Shown here piece after piece: positions 4,008 through 42,851 of a DNA stretch of 64,000 nt. This DNA comes from Escherichia phage vB_EcoM_KWBSE43-6. The first letter of the stretch is position 1. The number at the start of each line of letters is the position of its first letter. Under the pieces are notes generated by a model. That model made no database searches. It saw only the letters and a list, made by a program, of their open reading frames with translations, and was not told where the DNA came from. The translations under genes were made by a program, and so were the position numbers. Location of the stretch: sequence record NC_048186.1. One strand, given 5' to 3'.

Positions 4008-5441
4008 TTGCCAATGTTACTCGAATCTGTCGTGCTTTCCCAATTGATTTACAATGAAGAATACCAAAGAAAAATATTGCCTTACCTGAAAGCCGATTAT
4101 TTCGAAAATGAAGGTGAGAAGATTATATTCGGATTAATTGACGATTATTCGTCAGAATATAATGCTCGCCCTTCGGTTGATGCTCTGTCTATTATGCTGG
4201 AGAAGACTCCGCTCAACGAGCATGTGTTTGAACAATCAATCGCCGCTCTTTCTAATATCAATGACAATACATTCAATCAGGAATGGTTGGTAAAAGAAAC
4301 TGAGCAATGGGCGCGCAATAAGGCTGTGCACAACGCGATAAAAACAGCTGTTAACATCTATGGTGACAACAAGCGGCAGGAGGAGATGAATAATATCCCC
4401 ACCATCCTGCAAGAAGCGTTGTCTATCAGTTTTGATTCATATCTTGGTCATATCTATTGGGAAATGGCTGCAGAGCAATATGACCATATGAATTCAGCTG
4501 AGGCCAAAATCCCATTCGCTGTTGAAATATTCAACAAGGCTACGCGCGGCGGTGTAGGCAAAAAGACCCTGAACATTGTTACGGGTGCCATCAACGCAGG
4601 TAAGACCACAACCCTGATAGACCTGGCGGCGGGTTATTCAGAGCAGGGGCTGAATGTTTTCGTCTTTACCCTGGAAGTTGCTGAGAACATTTGGCGTCAC
4701 CGTCTTGACGCCCGTATTATGCGACGTGATTTTGAAGTCGTTGAGAAGATGACCCGTGAAGAGTACATCGGGACAATCCAAAAATTAAGGACAAGGGACA
4801 ACGGCTCTCTGAAAGGCGATATCGTCATCAAGGAATACCCATCTGGGGCAGGGCATACTGGATTGTATCGTCGAGATATTCTGGAATATATCTCGTCAAC
4901 AGGCATCTCTCCTGACGTTATCATTATCGACTATCTGGGTGAATCGGCGTCTTCGCGTCTTCCGGCTCATCTTATGAACAACACCAACGTGTACTATACA
5001 TCTGTTGCTCGTGAATTCCGTGCTCTTGGGTTCGAATTTGATTGCCCGGTGTGGACTGGTATGCAGTTCAATCGTGAGAAGCAATCAGCCACAGACGGGG
5101 ATATCAGTGACCTGGCAGATGCTATCGGTATCCCGAAGGTCGCCGACTTCATCATGGCATTCTATGCGCCGGACGAATTGGCTGCAGTCAAGAAGGCCCG
5201 CGCCAGTATCCTCAAAAACCGTTATGCCAACAAACAGAAATTGAAATCGTTCTTGTTTGGTATGGATCAGGATAAGCAGATTTTGTTTGATCTTGACTGG
5301 AATGAGGTTAAGCGAGATCTCACAGAAGAAGAAGCCAAATATGTTGAGAATGTTCATATTAAACATGATATGAACAAAACAGGGAACGTTGTGACCGACG
5401 CGAAGAAAGCGGAAACGGTCAATAACTGGAACTTTGGCTGA
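4008..5441 (+). CDS. 41: Replicative DNA helicase, DnaB family (T4 gp41-like)
   Basis: Walker A GAINAGKTT; N-terminus resembles T4 gp41; 477 aa. Confidence 0.9.
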   Translation: MPMLLESVVLSQLIYNEEYQRKILPYLKADYFENEGEKIIFGLIDDYSSEYNARPSVDALSIMLEKTPLNEHVFEQSIAALSNINDNTFNQEWLVKETEQWARNKAVHNAIKTAVNIYGDNKRQEEMNNIPTILQEALSISFDSYLGHIYWEMAAEQYDHMNSAEAKIPFAVEIFNKATRGGVGKKTLNIVTGAINAGKTTTLIDLAAGYSEQGLNVFVFTLEVAENIWRHRLDARIMRRDFEVVEKMTREEYIGTIQKLRTRDNGSLKGDIVIKEYPSGAGHTGLYRRDILEYISSTGISPDVIIIDYLGESASSRLPAHLMNNTNVYYTSVAREFRALGFEFDCPVWTGMQFNREKQSATDGDISDLADAIGIPKVADFIMAFYAPDELAAVKKARASILKNRYANKQKLKSFLFGMDQDKQILFDLDWNEVKRDLTEEEAKYVENVHIKHDMNKTGNVVTDAKKAETVNNWNFG

Positions 5442-5503
5442 TTTCAATAAACGGATCATGAGGTATAATCTTCATGATCTGAATATAAACCCAGGAGCAC
5501 ATC

Positions 5504-5839
5504 ATGTTGCACAATAATTTCATGGCGGATCTGCTACGCGCCGTTGAGCAGGTGTGCCACACCAAGAAGGATACGATCAATCTAGACTTCGCTCAGACTA
5601 TCGAATTCTTTAAAGCACGCCATGCTTGGAAAGACCACAATGTGAAAGTAATGGCGCAAGAAGGGGAATTGGTTGAACTCGATTTGCCATCATTCCCTTT
5701 ACCGGTACGGACCGAAACTCAGGAACAATACGAAATTGAAGGCGTTCGCATTATTCCTAAGTTTGGTTATCATAGTATCGTTTACTTCTTCCTGAGCCGG
5801 ATTGGGAGAAATATCATCCCGACCGGAATGCGTATCTAA
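5504..5839 (+). CDS. Hypothetical protein
   Basis: 111-aa ORF. Confidence 0.4.
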   Translation: MLHNNFMADLLRAVEQVCHTKKDTINLDFAQTIEFFKARHAWKDHNVKVMAQEGELVELDLPSFPLPVRTETQEQYEIEGVRIIPKFGYHSIVYFFLSRIGRNIIPTGMRI

Positions 5840-5852
5840 TAGAGGGCTTAAC

Positions 5853-6167
5853 ATGTCTGTAGAACAAATTGGTTTTTATGAAATCCCGAACGACCCGGCG
5901 CTGCGCAAGAAACTGTTTGACACCATCGAAAACTGCCGCGCCGCCCAAGTCCGTATCAAATCAGAACAGACGTACATCACTGACGCACTGTCTGAAATCG
6001 GTAAAGCAACGGGCATCAAAGCAGCTGATCTGCGTAAAGTCGTGTCAGACCGCGCCGCTGGTACTTACACCAAGACAATCGAAACCAGCGCCAAATACCA
6101 GGATCTCTACGAATCCCTGTTCCCGAACGCCGCGCCGGATCGTGATCCGAATACTTCCGGCGAATGA
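5853..6167 (+). CDS. Hypothetical protein
   Basis: Start re-picked at ATG 5853 with AGAGGG RBS; followed by terminator. Confidence 0.45.
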   Translation: MSVEQIGFYEIPNDPALRKKLFDTIENCRAAQVRIKSEQTYITDALSEIGKATGIKAADLRKVVSDRAAGTYTKTIETSAKYQDLYESLFPNAAPDRDPNTSGE

Positions 6168-6178
6168 CAGACCCCAAA

Positions 6179-6205
6179 GGCCCAACATTCGTTGGGCTTT
6201 CTTAC
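6179..6205 (+). terminator. Rho-independent terminator
   Basis: GCCCAAC-ATTC-GTTGGGC hairpin followed by TTTCTT. Confidence 0.6.
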
Positions 6206-6285
6206 TTTCAAAACCTTTACTTCAATAAACAACCGCGCTATATTTCATTTTATTGAATTGTTGTTTCTAAATCATGAGGTGAAAG

Positions 6286-7479
6286 ATGGACGCCAAAATC
6301 TACCAGATCCCGCTGGACAATGTCGTCATTGCGCAGGAACGCCTGCAAAAATTAGAGCGCACGGCAAATCGACTGGGGCTGGTATTCCCGACGGTGACCA
6401 TCAGTGAACCATACAGAACCCAACACAAAGATTCTACGTCTGGTGAAATTTTCTATCGTTGGTGGCGGGACATTTCTCTTGAAGGTGAAGGCATTGACCG
6501 CCCGGTTTCATACGGCGGCTGGTCTATCATCGGACAGTTCAATCATCAATATCCAAAGGTCATTCTCAACAAACTGACTGACGACATCGTCCCGCATTTC
6601 ATTCAACGATTCGAGGCAGAGAACGTATCGTGGTGTGAGCATTGCAATAAATCAGTTCGCCGCAATAACACATATGTGGTTCGTAATGAAACCAGCGGAG
6701 CGCAAATGCTCGTCGGTAGCAGCTGCATGCACCATTACGTGCCTCACCAGAAGTCCCTGGATGCCGTAATGGGTTATTACCTGTCCATTCACGAGCTGTT
6801 TAATAACCAGGACGAGGACGGCATCTATGGCGGCGGTACTCCGACGACTGTCGACACCCGGAATTATTTGCGTTTGGTATTCCAGATTTTGTTGACAGGG
6901 GTAGACATCAAATCAGATGTGTATTCAATCGTCATGTCATGCTTCAATGAAGGACAGCCGCCGAAAGACAGATCATCTTTGGCTTGGGATATCTACCACA
7001 AAGCGAAAGAATTTTATTTCGATGCCCTGAGCGAAATGGATCATATGATGGGATTTATTGCATCACTTCCACAGAATAACGATTTCAATGTCAGATTGAC
7101 TCGTATGTGTGAGGCCGGGTATCACCTTATCAAGGATTCCACGACCGTCCGCTGGGGTGCCGTCAAATATTATGAATTTTTACACAAGGGCAACGCACGG
7201 CTGAACAAAATTCAAACCAATTGGGTCGGGGAAATCGGGGAGATGATTGAGAAGACCGTCACCTGCGTTGACCGCAAGTTCCTCTACAGCGGGGATTGGG
7301 GTGATTCCTATCTGTATATCTTCAAAACCGAAGATGGTAGTACGATTACATGGAAGACATCCTATATTGATGCGGATCTGGAAGGACAGATGGTTATCCG
7401 GGGCCGGGTGAAAGAACTGACTGAGTATGAAGATGTCAAACAGACTCAGATTACCAGAGCAAAGTTGAGGACGTTATGA
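6286..7479 (+). CDS. Hypothetical protein with Cys/His cluster
   Basis: 397-aa ORF; WCEHCNK...SSCMHHY possible metal-binding site; function not recognised. Confidence 0.5.
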   Translation: MDAKIYQIPLDNVVIAQERLQKLERTANRLGLVFPTVTISEPYRTQHKDSTSGEIFYRWWRDISLEGEGIDRPVSYGGWSIIGQFNHQYPKVILNKLTDDIVPHFIQRFEAENVSWCEHCNKSVRRNNTYVVRNETSGAQMLVGSSCMHHYVPHQKSLDAVMGYYLSIHELFNNQDEDGIYGGGTPTTVDTRNYLRLVFQILLTGVDIKSDVYSIVMSCFNEGQPPKDRSSLAWDIYHKAKEFYFDALSEMDHMMGFIASLPQNNDFNVRLTRMCEAGYHLIKDSTTVRWGAVKYYEFLHKGNARLNKIQTNWVGEIGEMIEKTVTCVDRKFLYSGDWGDSYLYIFKTEDGSTITWKTSYIDADLEGQMVIRGRVKELTEYEDVKQTQITRAKLRTL

Positions 7480-36488: not shown

Positions 36489-36707
36489 TCATTTACTCTT
36501 CCTTTTGTTCTTTCCATGCGTTTTGGCTTTCTTCGGTCGTTTCACCGATGGTCGACCATGGCCCGGCGTTCCCGGCCCTGAATTGTTGGAATACCAAATA
36601 TCATCACCGCGATGACGTGATTCCTGATAACTACGCGCCAATGCTTGTTCTGCACTGATAACAGCACCAGCCATAGCAATGGCAACTAATGCCTTTTTGG
36701 AATTCAT
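36489..36707 (-). CDS. Small secreted basic protein
   Basis: Signal-peptide-like N-terminus MNSKKALVAIAMAGAVISAEQA; C-terminus RPSVKRPKKAKTHGKNKRKSK. Confidence 0.4.
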   Translation of the reverse strand: MNSKKALVAIAMAGAVISAEQALARSYQESRHRGDDIWYSNNSGPGTPGHGRPSVKRPKKAKTHGKNKRKSK

Positions 36708-37536: not shown

Positions 37537-37601
37537 GATGTTGCTCCAAAGAAAAGGGATAGAGCAATAATACCCTATCCCTGTTTATTGAAGAATTAAG
37601 T

Positions 37602-38021
37602 CTATTCAGCTTGCGTGTAGTTCAAATCGCCGCGCAGATCCTGAATAGGCTGGCCGCCAACTGCCATGATATAGATGGTGTTGATAGTTTCGAACCACGT
37701 CAGTTCGTTAACGTCTTTGGTGTACGGCGTCACTGGAATAGAAGTTTTGACTTCGTTCGTTTCAGTCAGCGGGTGTGCTTCAACCAGAGTAAGGATAGCG
37801 CAGCGCCCAGACGGATGGATAATACCTTCTTTAAACAACACGATCTTTTTGCGAGGATAGGATGCTTCCCCCAGGCATACGGCAAGATGGTGGATCATTT
37901 CTGGCCGGGTTAATAGAGTATCATTCCTGATGATACCTTGTTTAACAGCTGAGATAACGATCTCGTCCAGAATCGCCTGTTGTTGGTGAAGACTCATAGA
38001 TTCGGTAAGTTTTACGCCCAT
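37602..38021 (-). CDS. Hypothetical protein
   Basis: Start re-picked at MGVKLTE. Confidence 0.35.
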   Translation of the reverse strand: MGVKLTESMSLHQQQAILDEIVISAVKQGIIRNDTLLTRPEMIHHLAVCLGEASYPRKKIVLFKEGIIHPSGRCAILTLVEAHPLTETNEVKTSIPVTPYTKDVNELTWFETINTIYIMAVGGQPIQDLRGDLNYTQAE

Positions 38022-38025
38022 GATA

Positions 38026-38589
38026 TTACCCTTTGAAGTTAATCGGAGCCTGAACACCAGATTCAAAAGCTGCCTGGGTATGGCTATCACTTACAACCTG
38101 GCAGGTCTTTTCCAGATCCAGACGCGGGAAACCAAACATTCCAGCCACGATGTTGCCCGGGAACTGCTGGAGCCGGGTCTCGTACAACTGGCACGCATCG
38201 AGTTTTTTGGTCTGGCTGATACGGAATTCATCACGGCCCGCGCTGATTACGATCTGGATTTCTTTATACAGAGATGAATCGAACTGAATGTTCTGTTCCT
38301 GGATCCATTGCATCACCGCTTTGGAACCGTCGGCGCCATAGCGGCCTTCAAATGTTCCCTTGATGACTTCCTTCAACCCGTTCTTGTACATGTCCGGGAT
38401 TTGCGCCGTGTCCTGCACTTTCATAGTATAAGAACTCAGATAGTTCTCCGAGTCCTTGTTGAACTTCTTAACATTGTTCTCCAGCTTGTTAAAACCGTTG
38501 AACGTGCTGATAAGAAACCCGGCGATGATTGCGATCAAACCAACGGTAGCACCGACGACGATAAGAGAAGAACTGATACTTTTTGACAT
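38026..38589 (-). CDS. LemA-family membrane protein
   Basis: N-terminal TM helix plus C-terminal LemA signature FPGNIVAGMFGFPRLD. Confidence 0.55.
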   Translation of the reverse strand: MSKSISSSLIVVGATVGLIAIIAGFLISTFNGFNKLENNVKKFNKDSENYLSSYTMKVQDTAQIPDMYKNGLKEVIKGTFEGRYGADGSKAVMQWIQEQNIQFDSSLYKEIQIVISAGRDEFRISQTKKLDACQLYETRLQQFPGNIVAGMFGFPRLDLEKTCQVVSDSHTQAAFESGVQAPINFKG

Positions 38590-38605
38590 TTGTGTAGCCT
38601 CTTGT

Positions 38606-39697
38606 TTAGAATGGGAAACGACGATTTAGACTAAAATTATATGGCCCAGCGCCAAGATAGAATAATACACCGAACGGCACACAACCGAGTAAAGACACGA
38701 TCAGGGCTTCCCAGGTCTTCAACTCACGCCATTTCAGATAATCCATCTCCTTCATAGACACCCGGTTGTAGCCCTTGCTGATATTGGTAGCGACTTCTTG
38801 GAAGACTGCTATTCCCATGGGCTGTCCAGTAAGGGATAATCCATTGCGGGAATGCAACTCCATGTTGTTCATGCCATCTGCAAAAGATGTGCTCTTGCCC
38901 CAATTTATCTTCATATCCTTGGTGATATCGGTAACTACGATGACGTCATTCTTCTTGCCGCCCGCCCATGCATACACCAGCCCCTGGAAATATTCAATCG
39001 GCTGGCCTGAAGTTATCACCCAAACGATGTTCACCTGGCGCTCGGCACCCAGAGTTTTCAGAACGCCGTTCAAATAATCATTCCAGTAACCGACAGGAAG
39101 ATTCAAACCAGACATGTTCAAAACCCGGTTGACACGATAGTAATCATAGACCTTTGGGTACGCCGGAATATAATCTTTGAACTTCTCGGCAAACTGTTCA
39201 TCCGAACGGGAGAATAATGAATCCCTGTTTCCAAGAACGTAGTTCTGATACGGATGATCTTGTGCAGCTGGCTCCCCGATCTTCACCTGTGCCCAGCGCG
39301 GCGGCTGGCGCAAACCTTGTCGGTCTATACGCTTAATGGTCAGATCACCGACGGTCGTGTGAACATCCCAGTCAACGTCATAATCATGCTCGTCACAATA
39401 GATCGGGACACAGGACTGGTTGCCTTTACTATCCGTTGAACATGTCTGGCCGCATTGATACTGGTGCTCACACGAGACCTTTTCCCGAGTCTTGCCAGTC
39501 ACATAACCATTAAGGATTTCCACGTCAGCGGCACTCCCCAAGGAGAATGCTGCGTATGCACCCGCTTGTATCAGGCAAGACAAACCAACCCCGATAAGGG
39601 TCGTATAGACCGTCTCCTTAACGTTGTGGTCGGCCTGGTGTCTGACTATGAACGCAACCGCCATTGCCAACGGCAGGATGAAAAAGAGATAGATCAT
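38606..39697 (-). CDS. Multi-pass membrane protein (two N-terminal TM, one C-terminal TM, Cys-rich extracytoplasmic domain)
   Basis: Hydrophobic helices at both ends; Cys cluster CEHQYQCGQTCSTDSKGNQSCVPIYCDEH. Confidence 0.45.
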   Translation of the reverse strand: MIYLFFILPLAMAVAFIVRHQADHNVKETVYTTLIGVGLSCLIQAGAYAAFSLGSAADVEILNGYVTGKTREKVSCEHQYQCGQTCSTDSKGNQSCVPIYCDEHDYDVDWDVHTTVGDLTIKRIDRQGLRQPPRWAQVKIGEPAAQDHPYQNYVLGNRDSLFSRSDEQFAEKFKDYIPAYPKVYDYYRVNRVLNMSGLNLPVGYWNDYLNGVLKTLGAERQVNIVWVITSGQPIEYFQGLVYAWAGGKKNDVIVVTDITKDMKINWGKSTSFADGMNNMELHSRNGLSLTGQPMGIAVFQEVATNISKGYNRVSMKEMDYLKWRELKTWEALIVSLLGCVPFGVLFYLGAGPYNFSLNRRFPF

Positions 39698-40083
39698 AAT
39701 ACACCATCCACGAGTTGGGCTTTCGTCATACCCAACAGTTGTTCTTTGTGTTTTTCATCCGCGCCGTTGGCAACCAAGAGCGCCCAACGTTCTTCATGGT
39801 ACTTCGGGTCCATGGCTTCATCAAACGATAGGTGATGGCGAAACATGATTGAGGCCACAGAATGAAGATTGTGCGCGGTTGCTCTTTGCAAAGTCCGAGT
39901 TGCTGTGATATGCTGTTTTTGATACTCAACGCCCATAAGACGCAATTCACGAATAATACGAATTGGTGACAAATCACCTTTCTCGTAAAGTTCTTTGATA
40001 CGCGATTTCTTAGGGTGTAATTGGCCGTCTGTTTCTTTCATGAACAAATCGTACAAATATTCGACATATTCTGTGTGAGTCAT
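39694..40083 (-). CDS. Hypothetical protein
   Basis: 129-aa ORF. Confidence 0.4.
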   Translation of the reverse strand: MTHTEYVEYLYDLFMKETDGQLHPKKSRIKELYEKGDLSPIRIIRELRLMGVEYQKQHITATRTLQRATAHNLHSVASIMFRHHLSFDEAMDPKYHEERWALLVANGADEKHKEQLLGMTKAQLVDGVL

Positions 40084-40163
40084 AATTTTGATCCTTAGCG
40101 ATAAAAAGGGAACGAGCCAAATATAAGCCCATTCCCTTTATTGAAGAAATTGGTATTGCTCAG

Positions 40164-41381
40164 TTATTTCTTCATCAATGACATCAGATTAACACTCTTC
40201 CCAACAGGGGCGGTCTCCTGTTTGCGTTCAATACGCTCTTCAAGTTCCCAACGTGTTCCCTTCTGTAGATGCCAGATATGTAGGGGAACGCCCGTCTCAA
40301 AGAACACAGGCATCTTCCACTTCTGGACGCCTGGGACGTGCCCTGCGGGAGCCTTCTCACATAACAGGGTATCTGGTAGCCAAAGTGAACGCGCCTCCCA
40401 GAGTGCCGCGCAGGAGTACTCCGGCCAAATGCGTTCCATGTAGTCGATTTCGTCCCAGGTACGCTCCGCATCCCACCCGATATAACGAGTGTTCTTCAGA
40501 CGGAAGAATTTCTTCAACCAACACGCGCCAGAGGTCTCAAAGTTCAGACGGTTGATGAACGTCAGGTGACCGAATTCTTCAACGCATTCATGGAATGCCT
40601 TTTCCAAATCGGCTTCCAGGATGTCACACTCTTCATCGGTGATAGGACAGCCGTCGATCTTTTTCTTCCCGTGTTTGGTCACCCAATCATCACGGTTAGA
40701 AAGGAACGCCGCGCCGTTGCGGTTCGATTCGCTACCTTCACGGTCACGCAGCATGAAGCCAGGGACATCGATTTCCCACATGTTACCGAACACCATGTTC
40801 AGGGCTTCCAGGAAGTTCCAGGCGCTCAGACGGCCGAAGTATTTCCAGGACATTGCCGTGTCCCACAACTCAGTAAACTGGTCTTCTTTCATGGTGCATT
40901 CCAGCATCCAACGAAAAGAATCCATCTGAGTTTTACCGCCCAGCCAATCCACATAGGACTGAACACATGGGATCATCTTGGACTTGCGGTAGCGGCAATC
41001 AGTATCGAAGCGCATGCGTTCAAAGTTCAGATTATACCAGTCCGAGAAGCGCTGCATTTCTTCTTTGGTCTGCGGAGGAACCGGGAACTCAGAGTAGATT
41101 GTCCACGGGCCGATCGCATTATAGCAGCAACCCCAAAGAAACGCCATCCAGATCTTGCGCTCGATCTTTTCCAGATTGGTGAGGCCTTCTGTGACTTCAA
41201 TAGCATAATCCATCAGACGCATCTGCTGGTTGTGCTCTTCAGTATAGGACAGCGCTTCTACCCACGCCTTGAGCAGATACATCCGGTTCTCAGGCTTGCG
41301 GTAGTCAACCTTCAGATCAATCGGGTACTTCCATTGCTCAGGGGCTTTATACCCCTGCGGCATTTTAGATAAATGTGCCAT
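40164..41381 (-). CDS. Large conserved hypothetical protein (candidate DNA-base modification transferase)
   Basis: 405 aa, Trp/Cys-rich, sits beside P-loop kinase and HAD nucleotidase genes; function inferred from context only. Confidence 0.4.
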   Translation of the reverse strand: MAHLSKMPQGYKAPEQWKYPIDLKVDYRKPENRMYLLKAWVEALSYTEEHNQQMRLMDYAIEVTEGLTNLEKIERKIWMAFLWGCCYNAIGPWTIYSEFPVPPQTKEEMQRFSDWYNLNFERMRFDTDCRYRKSKMIPCVQSYVDWLGGKTQMDSFRWMLECTMKEDQFTELWDTAMSWKYFGRLSAWNFLEALNMVFGNMWEIDVPGFMLRDREGSESNRNGAAFLSNRDDWVTKHGKKKIDGCPITDEECDILEADLEKAFHECVEEFGHLTFINRLNFETSGACWLKKFFRLKNTRYIGWDAERTWDEIDYMERIWPEYSCAALWEARSLWLPDTLLCEKAPAGHVPGVQKWKMPVFFETGVPLHIWHLQKGTRWELEERIERKQETAPVGKSVNLMSLMKK

Positions 41382-41766: not shown

Positions 41767-41970
41767 TCATTTCCTTAAAAATAATTTATAGACAACAGGT
41801 ATCAAGAACGATAAGAAGCCGAACCAGTAAACCACATTCATGGTTTTCTTTTCTGCTTCTGATAGATCAATGAAACCATAATGATATACTATCATGGTTA
41901 ATAATGAGGCTAAACAAGTGATCGCCCCGACCAATAAAATTGCATCCAACCACTTGTTGTTCATCTTCAT
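41767..41970 (-). CDS. Small membrane protein
   Basis: 67 aa, two hydrophobic helices. Confidence 0.35.
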   Translation of the reverse strand: MKMNNKWLDAILLVGAITCLASLLTMIVYHYGFIDLSEAEKKTMNVVYWFGFLSFLIPVVYKLFLRK

Positions 41971-42851
41971 TTCCTCAACATCATAGCCAGCACGTTAGAA
42001 CTTTTGGACAGCTGTTTCTTTTCATCAGCAGTCTTCTTGACAGTCGGGCGGCGGGTAGCCTTTTCCGGTACGCGATGCGCCAGCGGGTCTGAACCACCAA
42101 CTTCGCGTGTCATTGGATGGTCTTCGCAATACTTATAGAATTCTTTGAAGACGAACCCAGCGTCACGGACTTCATTGATGATCATGTGATGAATGGCATT
42201 GCCAATGACCCACAGCGGTGCGTCGAATGGCAATTGGGCAACTTCGCTGCCAACGCCGTTCTTTTTGTAGAGGACGTCCTGACCGCTGTATGAATCTACA
42301 ACGACATCCCAGCCCGCCGCCGCCATTTCAGATTTAGACTTTTCAAATTCTTTCTGATAAGACTCATTCCGAGTCCAGCCCGAATCCCCGGCTTCTTTAC
42401 CAGAACGCCCACGGATACGAGCATCATACTGATAACGATCCGGATACGTGAAGTACAACAGCGCCAGTTGCTCAATAGGATAATTGGCAAACAGCCATTC
42501 TGGACGCCATTTATCAGACAGCATCAACGGTTCACCCTCACAGACGAGCGTATATCCCGCGCTGAGATGTTCTTTGACCAGTTCGCGGGCGATATCACCA
42601 GAACCTGTCGCGGCATGGATAGCGTCCATCGAGGTCCACGAGGCAAGACCGGATTTGTTTGACGCAGTATACTGGCCGACAAACATTAATTTCAGTTCAT
42701 CAAAGGCCAGGCCAAACAGGCGCGTTTTATCGCCGATGGTATAAGTGACCTCGCGCGGCTCGAGGCGAGTACGCAGCCATTCTATGAACTGTACCACACG
42801 AGTGCCCTTGCCCGTGCCGCTTGTGCCTTTGATTACAATCAGTTTTGACAT
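41967..42851 (-). CDS. P-loop NTPase/kinase-like protein
   Basis: N-terminal GTSGTGKGT Walker-A-like motif; 294 aa. Confidence 0.45.
   Translation of the reverse strand: MSKLIVIKGTSGTGKGTRVVQFIEWLRTRLEPREVTYTIGDKTRLFGLAFDELKLMFVGQYTASNKSGLASWTSMDAIHAATGSGDIARELVKEHLSAGYTLVCEGEPLMLSDKWRPEWLFANYPIEQLALLYFTYPDRYQYDARIRGRSGKEAGDSGWTRNESYQKEFEKSKSEMAAAGWDVVVDSYSGQDVLYKKNGVGSEVAQLPFDAPLWVIGNAIHHMIINEVRDAGFVFKEFYKYCEDHPMTREVGGSDPLAHRVPEKATRRPTVKKTADEKKQLSKSSNVLAMMLRK

Follow-up and report, generated by a model that had tools for sequence, protein, structure and literature searches.

A diverged LemA-TPM-like pair of membrane proteins in large-genome phages and its possible role in membrane maintenance during infection

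Introduction

LemA and TPM/YgcG proteins are widespread in bacteria, where they are often encoded side by side. A similar pair of genes is found in Escherichia phage vB_EcoM_KWBSE43-6 (sequence record NC_048186.1), within a stretch of 64,000 nucleotides, referred to here as the window, and it raises the question of what such a pair is and what it might do in an infected cell. One gene (positions 38606-39697) encodes P363, a 363-amino acid (aa) membrane protein with three predicted transmembrane (TM) segments, a Cys/His-containing beta domain and a TPM-fold domain; the other (38026-38589) encodes P187, a 187-aa bitopic LemA-like protein. Both are on the minus strand, as are all other features of the window described below. 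The original prediction, made from the letters of the sequence, had placed two open reading frames (ORFs) at precisely these coordinates, which are confirmed. It had likened them to bacterial pairs of LemA and a partner, and had suggested that they act at the envelope, for example in superinfection exclusion or in the timing of lysis.

The likeness to the bacterial pairs is genuine. Among six LemA genes sampled from bacterial plasmids, a TPM/YgcG gene follows directly in four and a DUF3137 gene in one, which argues that the phage pair is, as judged from homology and gene arrangement, the cellular LemA-TPM membrane module in a strongly diverged form. Because it is a diverged two-gene module carried by lytic phages, it is also genetically tractable.

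Conservation and linkage of the two genes

Low ratios of nonsynonymous to synonymous substitution (dN/dS), together with matches to phage protein families, indicate that P363 and P187 are real genes. In a comparison with Klebsiella phage Menlow, dN/dS is 0.029 for P363 and 0.042 for P187, and the two proteins match PHROG 2087 and PHROG 1383 at E values of 3e-155 and 6e-82, respectively. Strong purifying selection acts on both. The window comes from a Klebsiella Taipeivirus (Ackermannviridae) and is 97% identical to Menlow and to two further Klebsiella phages of that genus, phi1_146041 and KpS110. It had been noted that such a pair is not part of the T4 core set, but a T4 framework is misplaced for a Taipeivirus genome; the T4-like Aeromonas phage Aeh1 nonetheless carries the pair.

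In tblastn searches, 484 phage records contained P363 and 495 contained P187, with near-identical counts by genus (Salmonella 168 and 166, Escherichia 61 and 61, Klebsiella 55 and 54, Erwinia 29 and 29, for P363 and P187 respectively). The pair is present in about 1% of sequenced phage genomes, distributed over several unrelated lineages with hosts ranging from Proteobacteria to Bacillus, and nearly all of the listed phage records that have it are longer than 100 kb. Its range covers Ackermannviridae, T5-like phages, ICP1, Aeh1, jumbo phages, Bacillus phage G and megaplasmids.

Wherever both genes occur in a locus with enough flanking DNA, they lie next to each other. P363 comes first, on the same strand as P187, in phages CBA120 (orf253/254), LIMEstone1 (ORF194/195), Menlow, ICP1 2017_DRC_106, Erwinia phage RAY (gp45/46) and Aeh1 (ORF288c/287c), as it does in all eight contigs of metagenome-assembled genomes with downstream DNA and on 'plasmids' of 0.6-0.9 Mb from Vibrio, Photobacterium and Variovorax. 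The reverse order, with the LemA-like gene preceding the TPM-like gene as in bacteria, occurs in Bacillus phage G (gp142/gp144) and Tenacibaculum phage PTm1 (ORF-155/157). Genetic linkage of P363 and P187 is near-obligate. The genes that flank them are not co-conserved.

The individual loci differ in their details. In phage G (locus L004, 2196-4155) a small extra ORF, gp143, lies between gp142 and gp144; the PTm1 pair occupies positions 5001-6631 of locus L025. Megaplasmid copies are found on pVP-19-VB00998 of Vibrio parahaemolyticus (882 kb; L027, 8965-10697) and on the linear plasmid 2 of Variovorax sp. SRS16 (801 kb; L028, 8923-10688), in 19-kb stretches that otherwise encode mostly small hypothetical proteins, along with DUF262 proteins, endonuclease V and a GIY-YIG nuclease. 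In ICP1 2017_DRC_106 the pair (L002, 3866-5459) lies between gp30 and gp41, in a block without legacy gp numbers, which suggests that the region is variable and missing from some ICP1 isolates.

P187, a LemA-like protein

Profile comparisons identify P187 as a remote homologue of LemA. When aligned using hhalign, the P187 family matches six annotated bacterial LemA proteins at 95.4% probability (E 2e-8) over 131 columns, and when the family profile is compared with PDB sequences, the top match is the LemA structure 2ETD (E 0.0098), in two collinear segments. The LemA-homologous domain, which is predicted to be helical, spans aa 27-157 (38119-38511) and follows a signal-anchor TM segment at aa 9-27 (38509-38565; Kyte-Doolittle 2.78). 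In the hhalign alignment, the C-terminal FPGNIVAGMFGF of P187 falls on the FP motif of true LemA proteins, with Y136 and FPGNIVAGMFGFP opposite their YN..FP..fG motif. FP is retained solely in the Ackermannviridae subgroup of the family; Y136, G153 and P155 are conserved family-wide. The LemA signature originally ascribed to the protein, an N-terminal TM segment and a C-terminal motif, is therefore present.

It had been proposed that membership of the LemA family be checked by a hidden Markov model search. Homology did emerge from the profile-profile comparison, but the Pfam threshold was not reached: P187 scores 19.2 bits (E 0.0011) against LemA (PF04011), below the gathering cut-off of 26.2. 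Just three of 38 diverse P187 relatives match LemA at E values up to 0.1 (best E 0.00035), and the best score among individually scanned members is the 22.3 bits of the Vibrio megaplasmid copy. Scans against NCBIfam and PADLOC yielded no match. The AlphaFold2 (AF2) model of P187 is all helical, with a predicted local distance difference test (pLDDT) score of 88.6; a Foldseek search of this model against the PDB gave no significant match (best E 0.43), with LemA 2ETD at rank 12.

The P187 family comprises 1505 representative clusters at E values up to 1e-3. Its alignment reveals a near-invariant motif, EGRYGxDGSKAVxQWIQEQN, at aa 81-100 (38290-38349). Two cysteines, Cys133 and Cys163 (38101-38193), probably form a periplasmic disulfide: among the 38 relatives, 17 have both, 21 have neither and none has a single one. 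This joint pattern fits a disulfide, but shared ancestry could produce the same pattern.

P363, a partner with a Cys/His cluster and a TPM-fold domain

P363 has 299 homologues, nearly all from phages or metagenomes. Its AF2 model (pLDDT 90.7) begins with two helices (aa 4-20 and 26-55), the first corresponding to TM1 at about aa 1-20 (39638-39694; Kyte-Doolittle 2.29) and the second to the moderately hydrophobic TM2 (39533-39622). A beta domain, predicted to be periplasmic, follows at aa 57-151 (39245-39529) and an alpha/beta domain at about aa 192-325 (38723-39124), the latter with a conserved W-x-GGKKNDV strand. The protein ends with a helix at aa 328-350 that corresponds to TM3 (38648-38716; Kyte-Doolittle 2.16 for aa 331-349) and a short basic tail.

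The alpha/beta domain gives the P363 ectodomain the TPM fold. Twelve of 43 relatives have weak Pfam TPM matches at the corresponding position (best E 1.8e-4). In four relatives examined, the TPM scores are 15-18 bits and cover only profile positions 11-76, the first half of the domain. P363 itself has no match in Pfam, NCBIfam or PADLOC, the 22.1-bit threshold of TPM (PF04536) not being reached, and its family profile gives only chance-level matches with PDB sequences. Of the two families that had been put forward for the partner, the TPM-like guess was right, and this domain is also the one found after bacterial LemA genes. DUF2207, in contrast, was rejected, as it was not among the 25 most-matched families listed, out of 39 matched at E values up to 1 by the 43 relatives scanned. 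PHROG 2087 thereby gains a fold assignment and a predicted topology.

The description of the partner as Cys-rich is accurate for one conserved Cys/His cluster and not for the protein in general. The cluster consists of C76, H78, C82, C86, C96, C101 and H104 (39386-39472), and each of these five cysteines and two histidines is conserved in at least 41 of the 43 aligned relatives. Of these relatives, 41 have an odd number of ectodomain cysteines (5, 7 or 9) and the other two have four. The cluster could be a zinc site, a set of disulfides or both. The additional ectodomain cysteines of the family arrive in pairs, giving CxC and CxxC spacings.

Joint topology of the pair

The distribution of charged residues predicts how each protein lies in the membrane. 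In the P187 family the N-terminal tail has a net charge of +1.4 and the flank after the TM segment -0.3, the N-terminal side being the more positive in 31 of the 38 relatives; this indicates an N-in/C-out orientation. Across the 43 relatives of P363, positive net charge is found in the TM1-TM2 loop (+0.95) and the C-terminal tail (+1.14), and negative charge in the flanks of the large domain. Loop and tail are thus predicted to be cytoplasmic and the large domain periplasmic, and this charge bias supports the topology first sketched for the partner, with two N-terminal TM segments, an extracytoplasmic domain and a C-terminal TM segment.

Since the positive-inside bias is found in both families, and the paired cysteines of P187 are present or absent jointly, both soluble domains, the LemA-like domain of P187 and the large domain of P363, are predicted to be periplasmic. 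Lipobox-type signals (LAGC, LSGC) start two of the six bacterial LemA proteins, from which it follows that the LemA domains of those bacteria are extracytoplasmic too.

A single 553-aa ORF, P0227, joins a P363-like to a P187-like protein by a linker of about 25 residues, and the topology of this linker places both domains on one side of the membrane. P0227 is one instance, from JGI metagenome 3300014198 (contig Ga0181608_113487; locus L023, 1012-2673), and it could reflect either a genuine fusion of the two genes or a frame error made during assembly.

Transcription unit and genomic neighbourhood

In the window, P363 and P187 are the two inner genes of a unit of four. The stop codon of the 129-aa gene upstream (39694-40083; phrog_5047) and the ATG of P363 overlap in the sequence ATGA. 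P363 and P187 are separated by a 16-nucleotide spacer (38590-38605) containing AAGAGG, a Shine-Dalgarno sequence for P187, at the place where a ribosome-binding site is annotated in Menlow. The ATG of a downstream 139-aa gene (37602-38021; phrog_4236, gp007 of Menlow) begins 4 nucleotides after the P187 stop codon. Terminator-like hairpins bound the unit: one with a T-run lies upstream (40101-40139), and another, with a 12-bp stem followed by a T-run, closes the unit (37555-37582); a terminator is annotated at both positions in Menlow. The two flanking genes were considered as members of the module and rejected, as their conservation is confined to Ackermannviridae; among the loci tested, the 129-aa gene is found only in Menlow and CBA120. 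The conserved module therefore consists of exactly two genes.

The stretch from the upstream hairpin to the start codon of the first gene has no promoter, so that expression by read-through from the DNA-modification operon is indicated. A scan for sigma-70 promoters and terminators returned counts at or below those expected from shuffled sequence, and a search for the T4-type late-promoter motif found no site near the pair. No usable transcriptome of an Ackermannviridae phage turned up in a search for one.

The neighbours of the pair in the window include rIIA, an amino acid:DNA transferase and 5-hmdU DNA kinase 2. The transferase gene (40164-41381; PF18724, E 2e-58) and the kinase gene (41967-42851; PF18747, E 4e-138) lie directly upstream of the unit. 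Transferase and kinase are thymidine-hypermodification genes typical of ViI-like phages, and some records label the kinase 'guanylate kinase'. Not only here but also in RAY, Aeh1, PTm1 and the metagenomic locus L023, the pair sits amid nucleotide-metabolism, replication and auxiliary genes, outside structural and lysis modules.

Two small ORFs of the same early region, both annotated genes in Menlow, are also predicted to be directed to the envelope. The N-terminus of a 72-aa ORF (36489-36707; Menlow gp004) resembles a signal peptide (MNSKKALVAIAMAGAVISAEQALA) and precedes a basic tail, and a 67-aa ORF (41767-41970; Menlow gp013) apparently contains two hydrophobic helices.

Possible functions of the pair

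The anatomy, homology and predicted topology of P363 and P187 were obtained computationally, and they suggest the following course of events. P363 would insert in the host inner membrane by its two-helix hairpin and its C-terminal helix, displaying the Cys/His-rich beta domain and the TPM-fold domain in the periplasm. P187, held by a single N-terminal anchor helix with its N-terminus inside, would expose its helical LemA-like domain there as well. The two proteins, translated from a transcript shared with early or middle DNA-modification and replication genes, would assemble as a complex on the periplasmic face of the membrane. This complex may serve the membrane, or complexes embedded in it, as a maintenance or chaperone-like factor that keeps the envelope intact and energised during infection by a large-genome phage, or makes it resistant to membrane-directed triggers of abortive infection; P363 and P187 would then be neither parts of the virion nor of a lysis cassette. 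Such a membrane-maintenance or chaperone-like role during infection is, we infer, the likeliest function. That a diverged LemA-TPM module acts in this way on the periplasmic face of the membrane is nevertheless put forward tentatively, at slightly less than an even chance.

Several observations weigh against it. Both phage proteins fall below the Pfam thresholds, and in the case of P363, an hhalign comparison of its family with four bacterial TPM/YgcG proteins found the right region, but without significance (2.8%, E 0.016). The motif DR..RxEVGxGLE in the second half of the TPM domain, invariant in those four proteins, has no counterpart in the P363 family, the alignment there being weak. The Prevotella megaphage Lak-B1 has a P187-like gene (L024, 4824-5369; E 4e-36 to the family profile) that adjoins a ClpX-like gene, with no P363-like ORF within 5 kb in either genetic code; the tblastn search with P187 found 15 Prevotella phage records, and the ten genera listed for P363 do not include Prevotella. 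The physical interaction of P363 with P187 and the timing of their expression are points that we infer. The near-invariant motifs, EGRYGxDGS in P187 and several invariant Asp, Lys and Arg residues of P363, could form an enzyme or ligand site rather than belong to a chaperone, and the databases label P187 a 'virion structural protein'. Finally, the searched literature contains neither experiments on P363 or P187 nor a tested function for the bacterial LemA-TPM pair.

Superinfection exclusion, in which a periplasm-facing complex would block genome entry or penetration of the cell wall by later phages, is one of the two roles originally suggested. T4 Imm and Sp act in this manner on later-arriving phages. 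The predicted inner-membrane and periplasmic location would suit such a role, as would the position of the pair among early or middle genes near rIIA and the fact that its carriers are virulent phages that compete for the same hosts. However, neither protein resembles Imm, Sp or other exclusion proteins, and neither has a match in PADLOC. Exclusion proteins are, moreover, usually lineage-specific and fast-evolving, whereas the near-invariant motifs of this pair extend over Klebsiella phages, Bacillus phage G, Tenacibaculum phage PTm1 and contigs associated with the Candidate Phyla Radiation. Their constancy across such distant phages fits a universal target better than a competitor-specific one, and exclusion is accordingly considered unlikely. 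Lysis timing, the other suggested role, appears quite improbable. Here the pair would sense or regulate holin triggering in the periplasm, like the T4 antiholin RI and the periplasmic domain of holin T, and it does consist of two periplasm-facing membrane proteins, one small and helical and the other with a globular domain, encoded close to rIIA. Against this, there is no structural or sequence match to T or RI, the pair does not adjoin endolysin, holin or spanin genes in any phage examined, and it is present in the T4-like Aeh1 and in T5-like phages; T4-like and T5-like phages have complete lysis systems of their own.

The motifs raise a different prospect, namely that the two proteins are enzymes whose phosphorylated substrate is periplasmic or lipid-linked; a TPM phosphatase acting on envelope precursors, for example, would remodel the envelope. 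Against this, ATP is absent from the periplasm and the genomic context suggests no substrate; nor is the canonical TPM motif region conserved. On the other side, the near-invariant polar motifs of both proteins resemble ligand or catalytic sites, the Cys/His cluster could bind metal, and TPM domains are reported to have phosphatase and ATPase/ADPase activity (summarised in PMC11237479). An enzyme pair is thus regarded as rather unlikely. It is very improbable that P187 is a genuine virion component. The label 'virion structural protein' is attached to PHROG 1383 and to many RefSeq records, and the homologue in Erwinia phage RAY is named 'putative structural protein', but it cannot be traced to an experiment in the papers on RAY, LIMEstone1, phiD3, PD10.3 or 0507-KN2-1; the mass spectrometry of RAY used a crude lysate, and gp46 is not listed. 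A signal-anchor TM segment and a LemA-like domain also sit poorly with a structural role, as does a gene outside the structural modules that is linked to the gene of a three-TM protein and that bacterial megaplasmids carry as well. The label can therefore be corrected, no experimental basis for it having been found.

A further proposal may be considered, doubtful as it is. The pair could be a distinct machine of two proteins, propagated by phages and placed on the outer side of the cytoplasmic membrane, that binds or modifies a universally conserved component of the envelope or membrane through its invariant EGRYGxDGS and Cys/His/TPM sites and guards infected cells from membrane-directed abortive-infection or envelope-stress responses. 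If this were true, large-genome phages would have in it a module of general counter-defence or membrane guarding, which would provide the first functional handle on the widespread bacterial LemA-TPM system.

Comparison with known systems

The T4 proteins Imm and Sp, and RI and T, which are analogies for the two roles suggested in the original prediction, are likewise phage-encoded and act at the inner membrane or in the periplasm, but their patterns of distribution and conservation differ from those of the pair. No similarity of P363 or P187 to exclusion, holin or antiholin proteins, or to PADLOC defence models, was detected in sequence or fold.

A second comparison is with TPM proteins that have been linked to membrane complexes. 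TPM domains have been proposed to act in a chaperone-like manner in the repair or assembly of such complexes, and are associated with PspA membrane-stress operons and with zinc-ribbon (ZnR) proteins (PMC11237479), in line with a membrane-maintenance role of the phage pair. TLP18.3/Psb32 and B. subtilis YdjH are TPM proteins of this kind, concerned with membrane-complex repair and with PspA operons; the phage pair, in contrast, has no PspA-like partner, and its sequence similarity to them is marginal. The resemblance to the ZnR association is a lead only.

The closest counterpart is the bacterial pair of LemA (PF04011, COG1704, 2ETD) and TPM/YgcG (PF04536), for which the literature searched, on LemA together with TPM, YgcG, DUF2207 or phages, yielded no study of function. 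Like the phage pair, it consists of two adjacent genes on the same strand, which encode a membrane-anchored helical protein of the LemA type and a TPM-fold protein, with domains that appear to be extracytoplasmic in both cases. The usual gene order is reversed in the phage of the window, where the TPM-like gene comes first. The phage TPM protein has an additional N-terminal TM hairpin and the Cys/His beta domain, and it lacks the Gly-rich C-terminal tail of its bacterial counterpart as well as the DR..RxEVGxGLE motif, whilst the phage LemA-like protein is missing about 25 residues from the middle of bacterial LemA and carries the EGRYGxDGS motif as its own.

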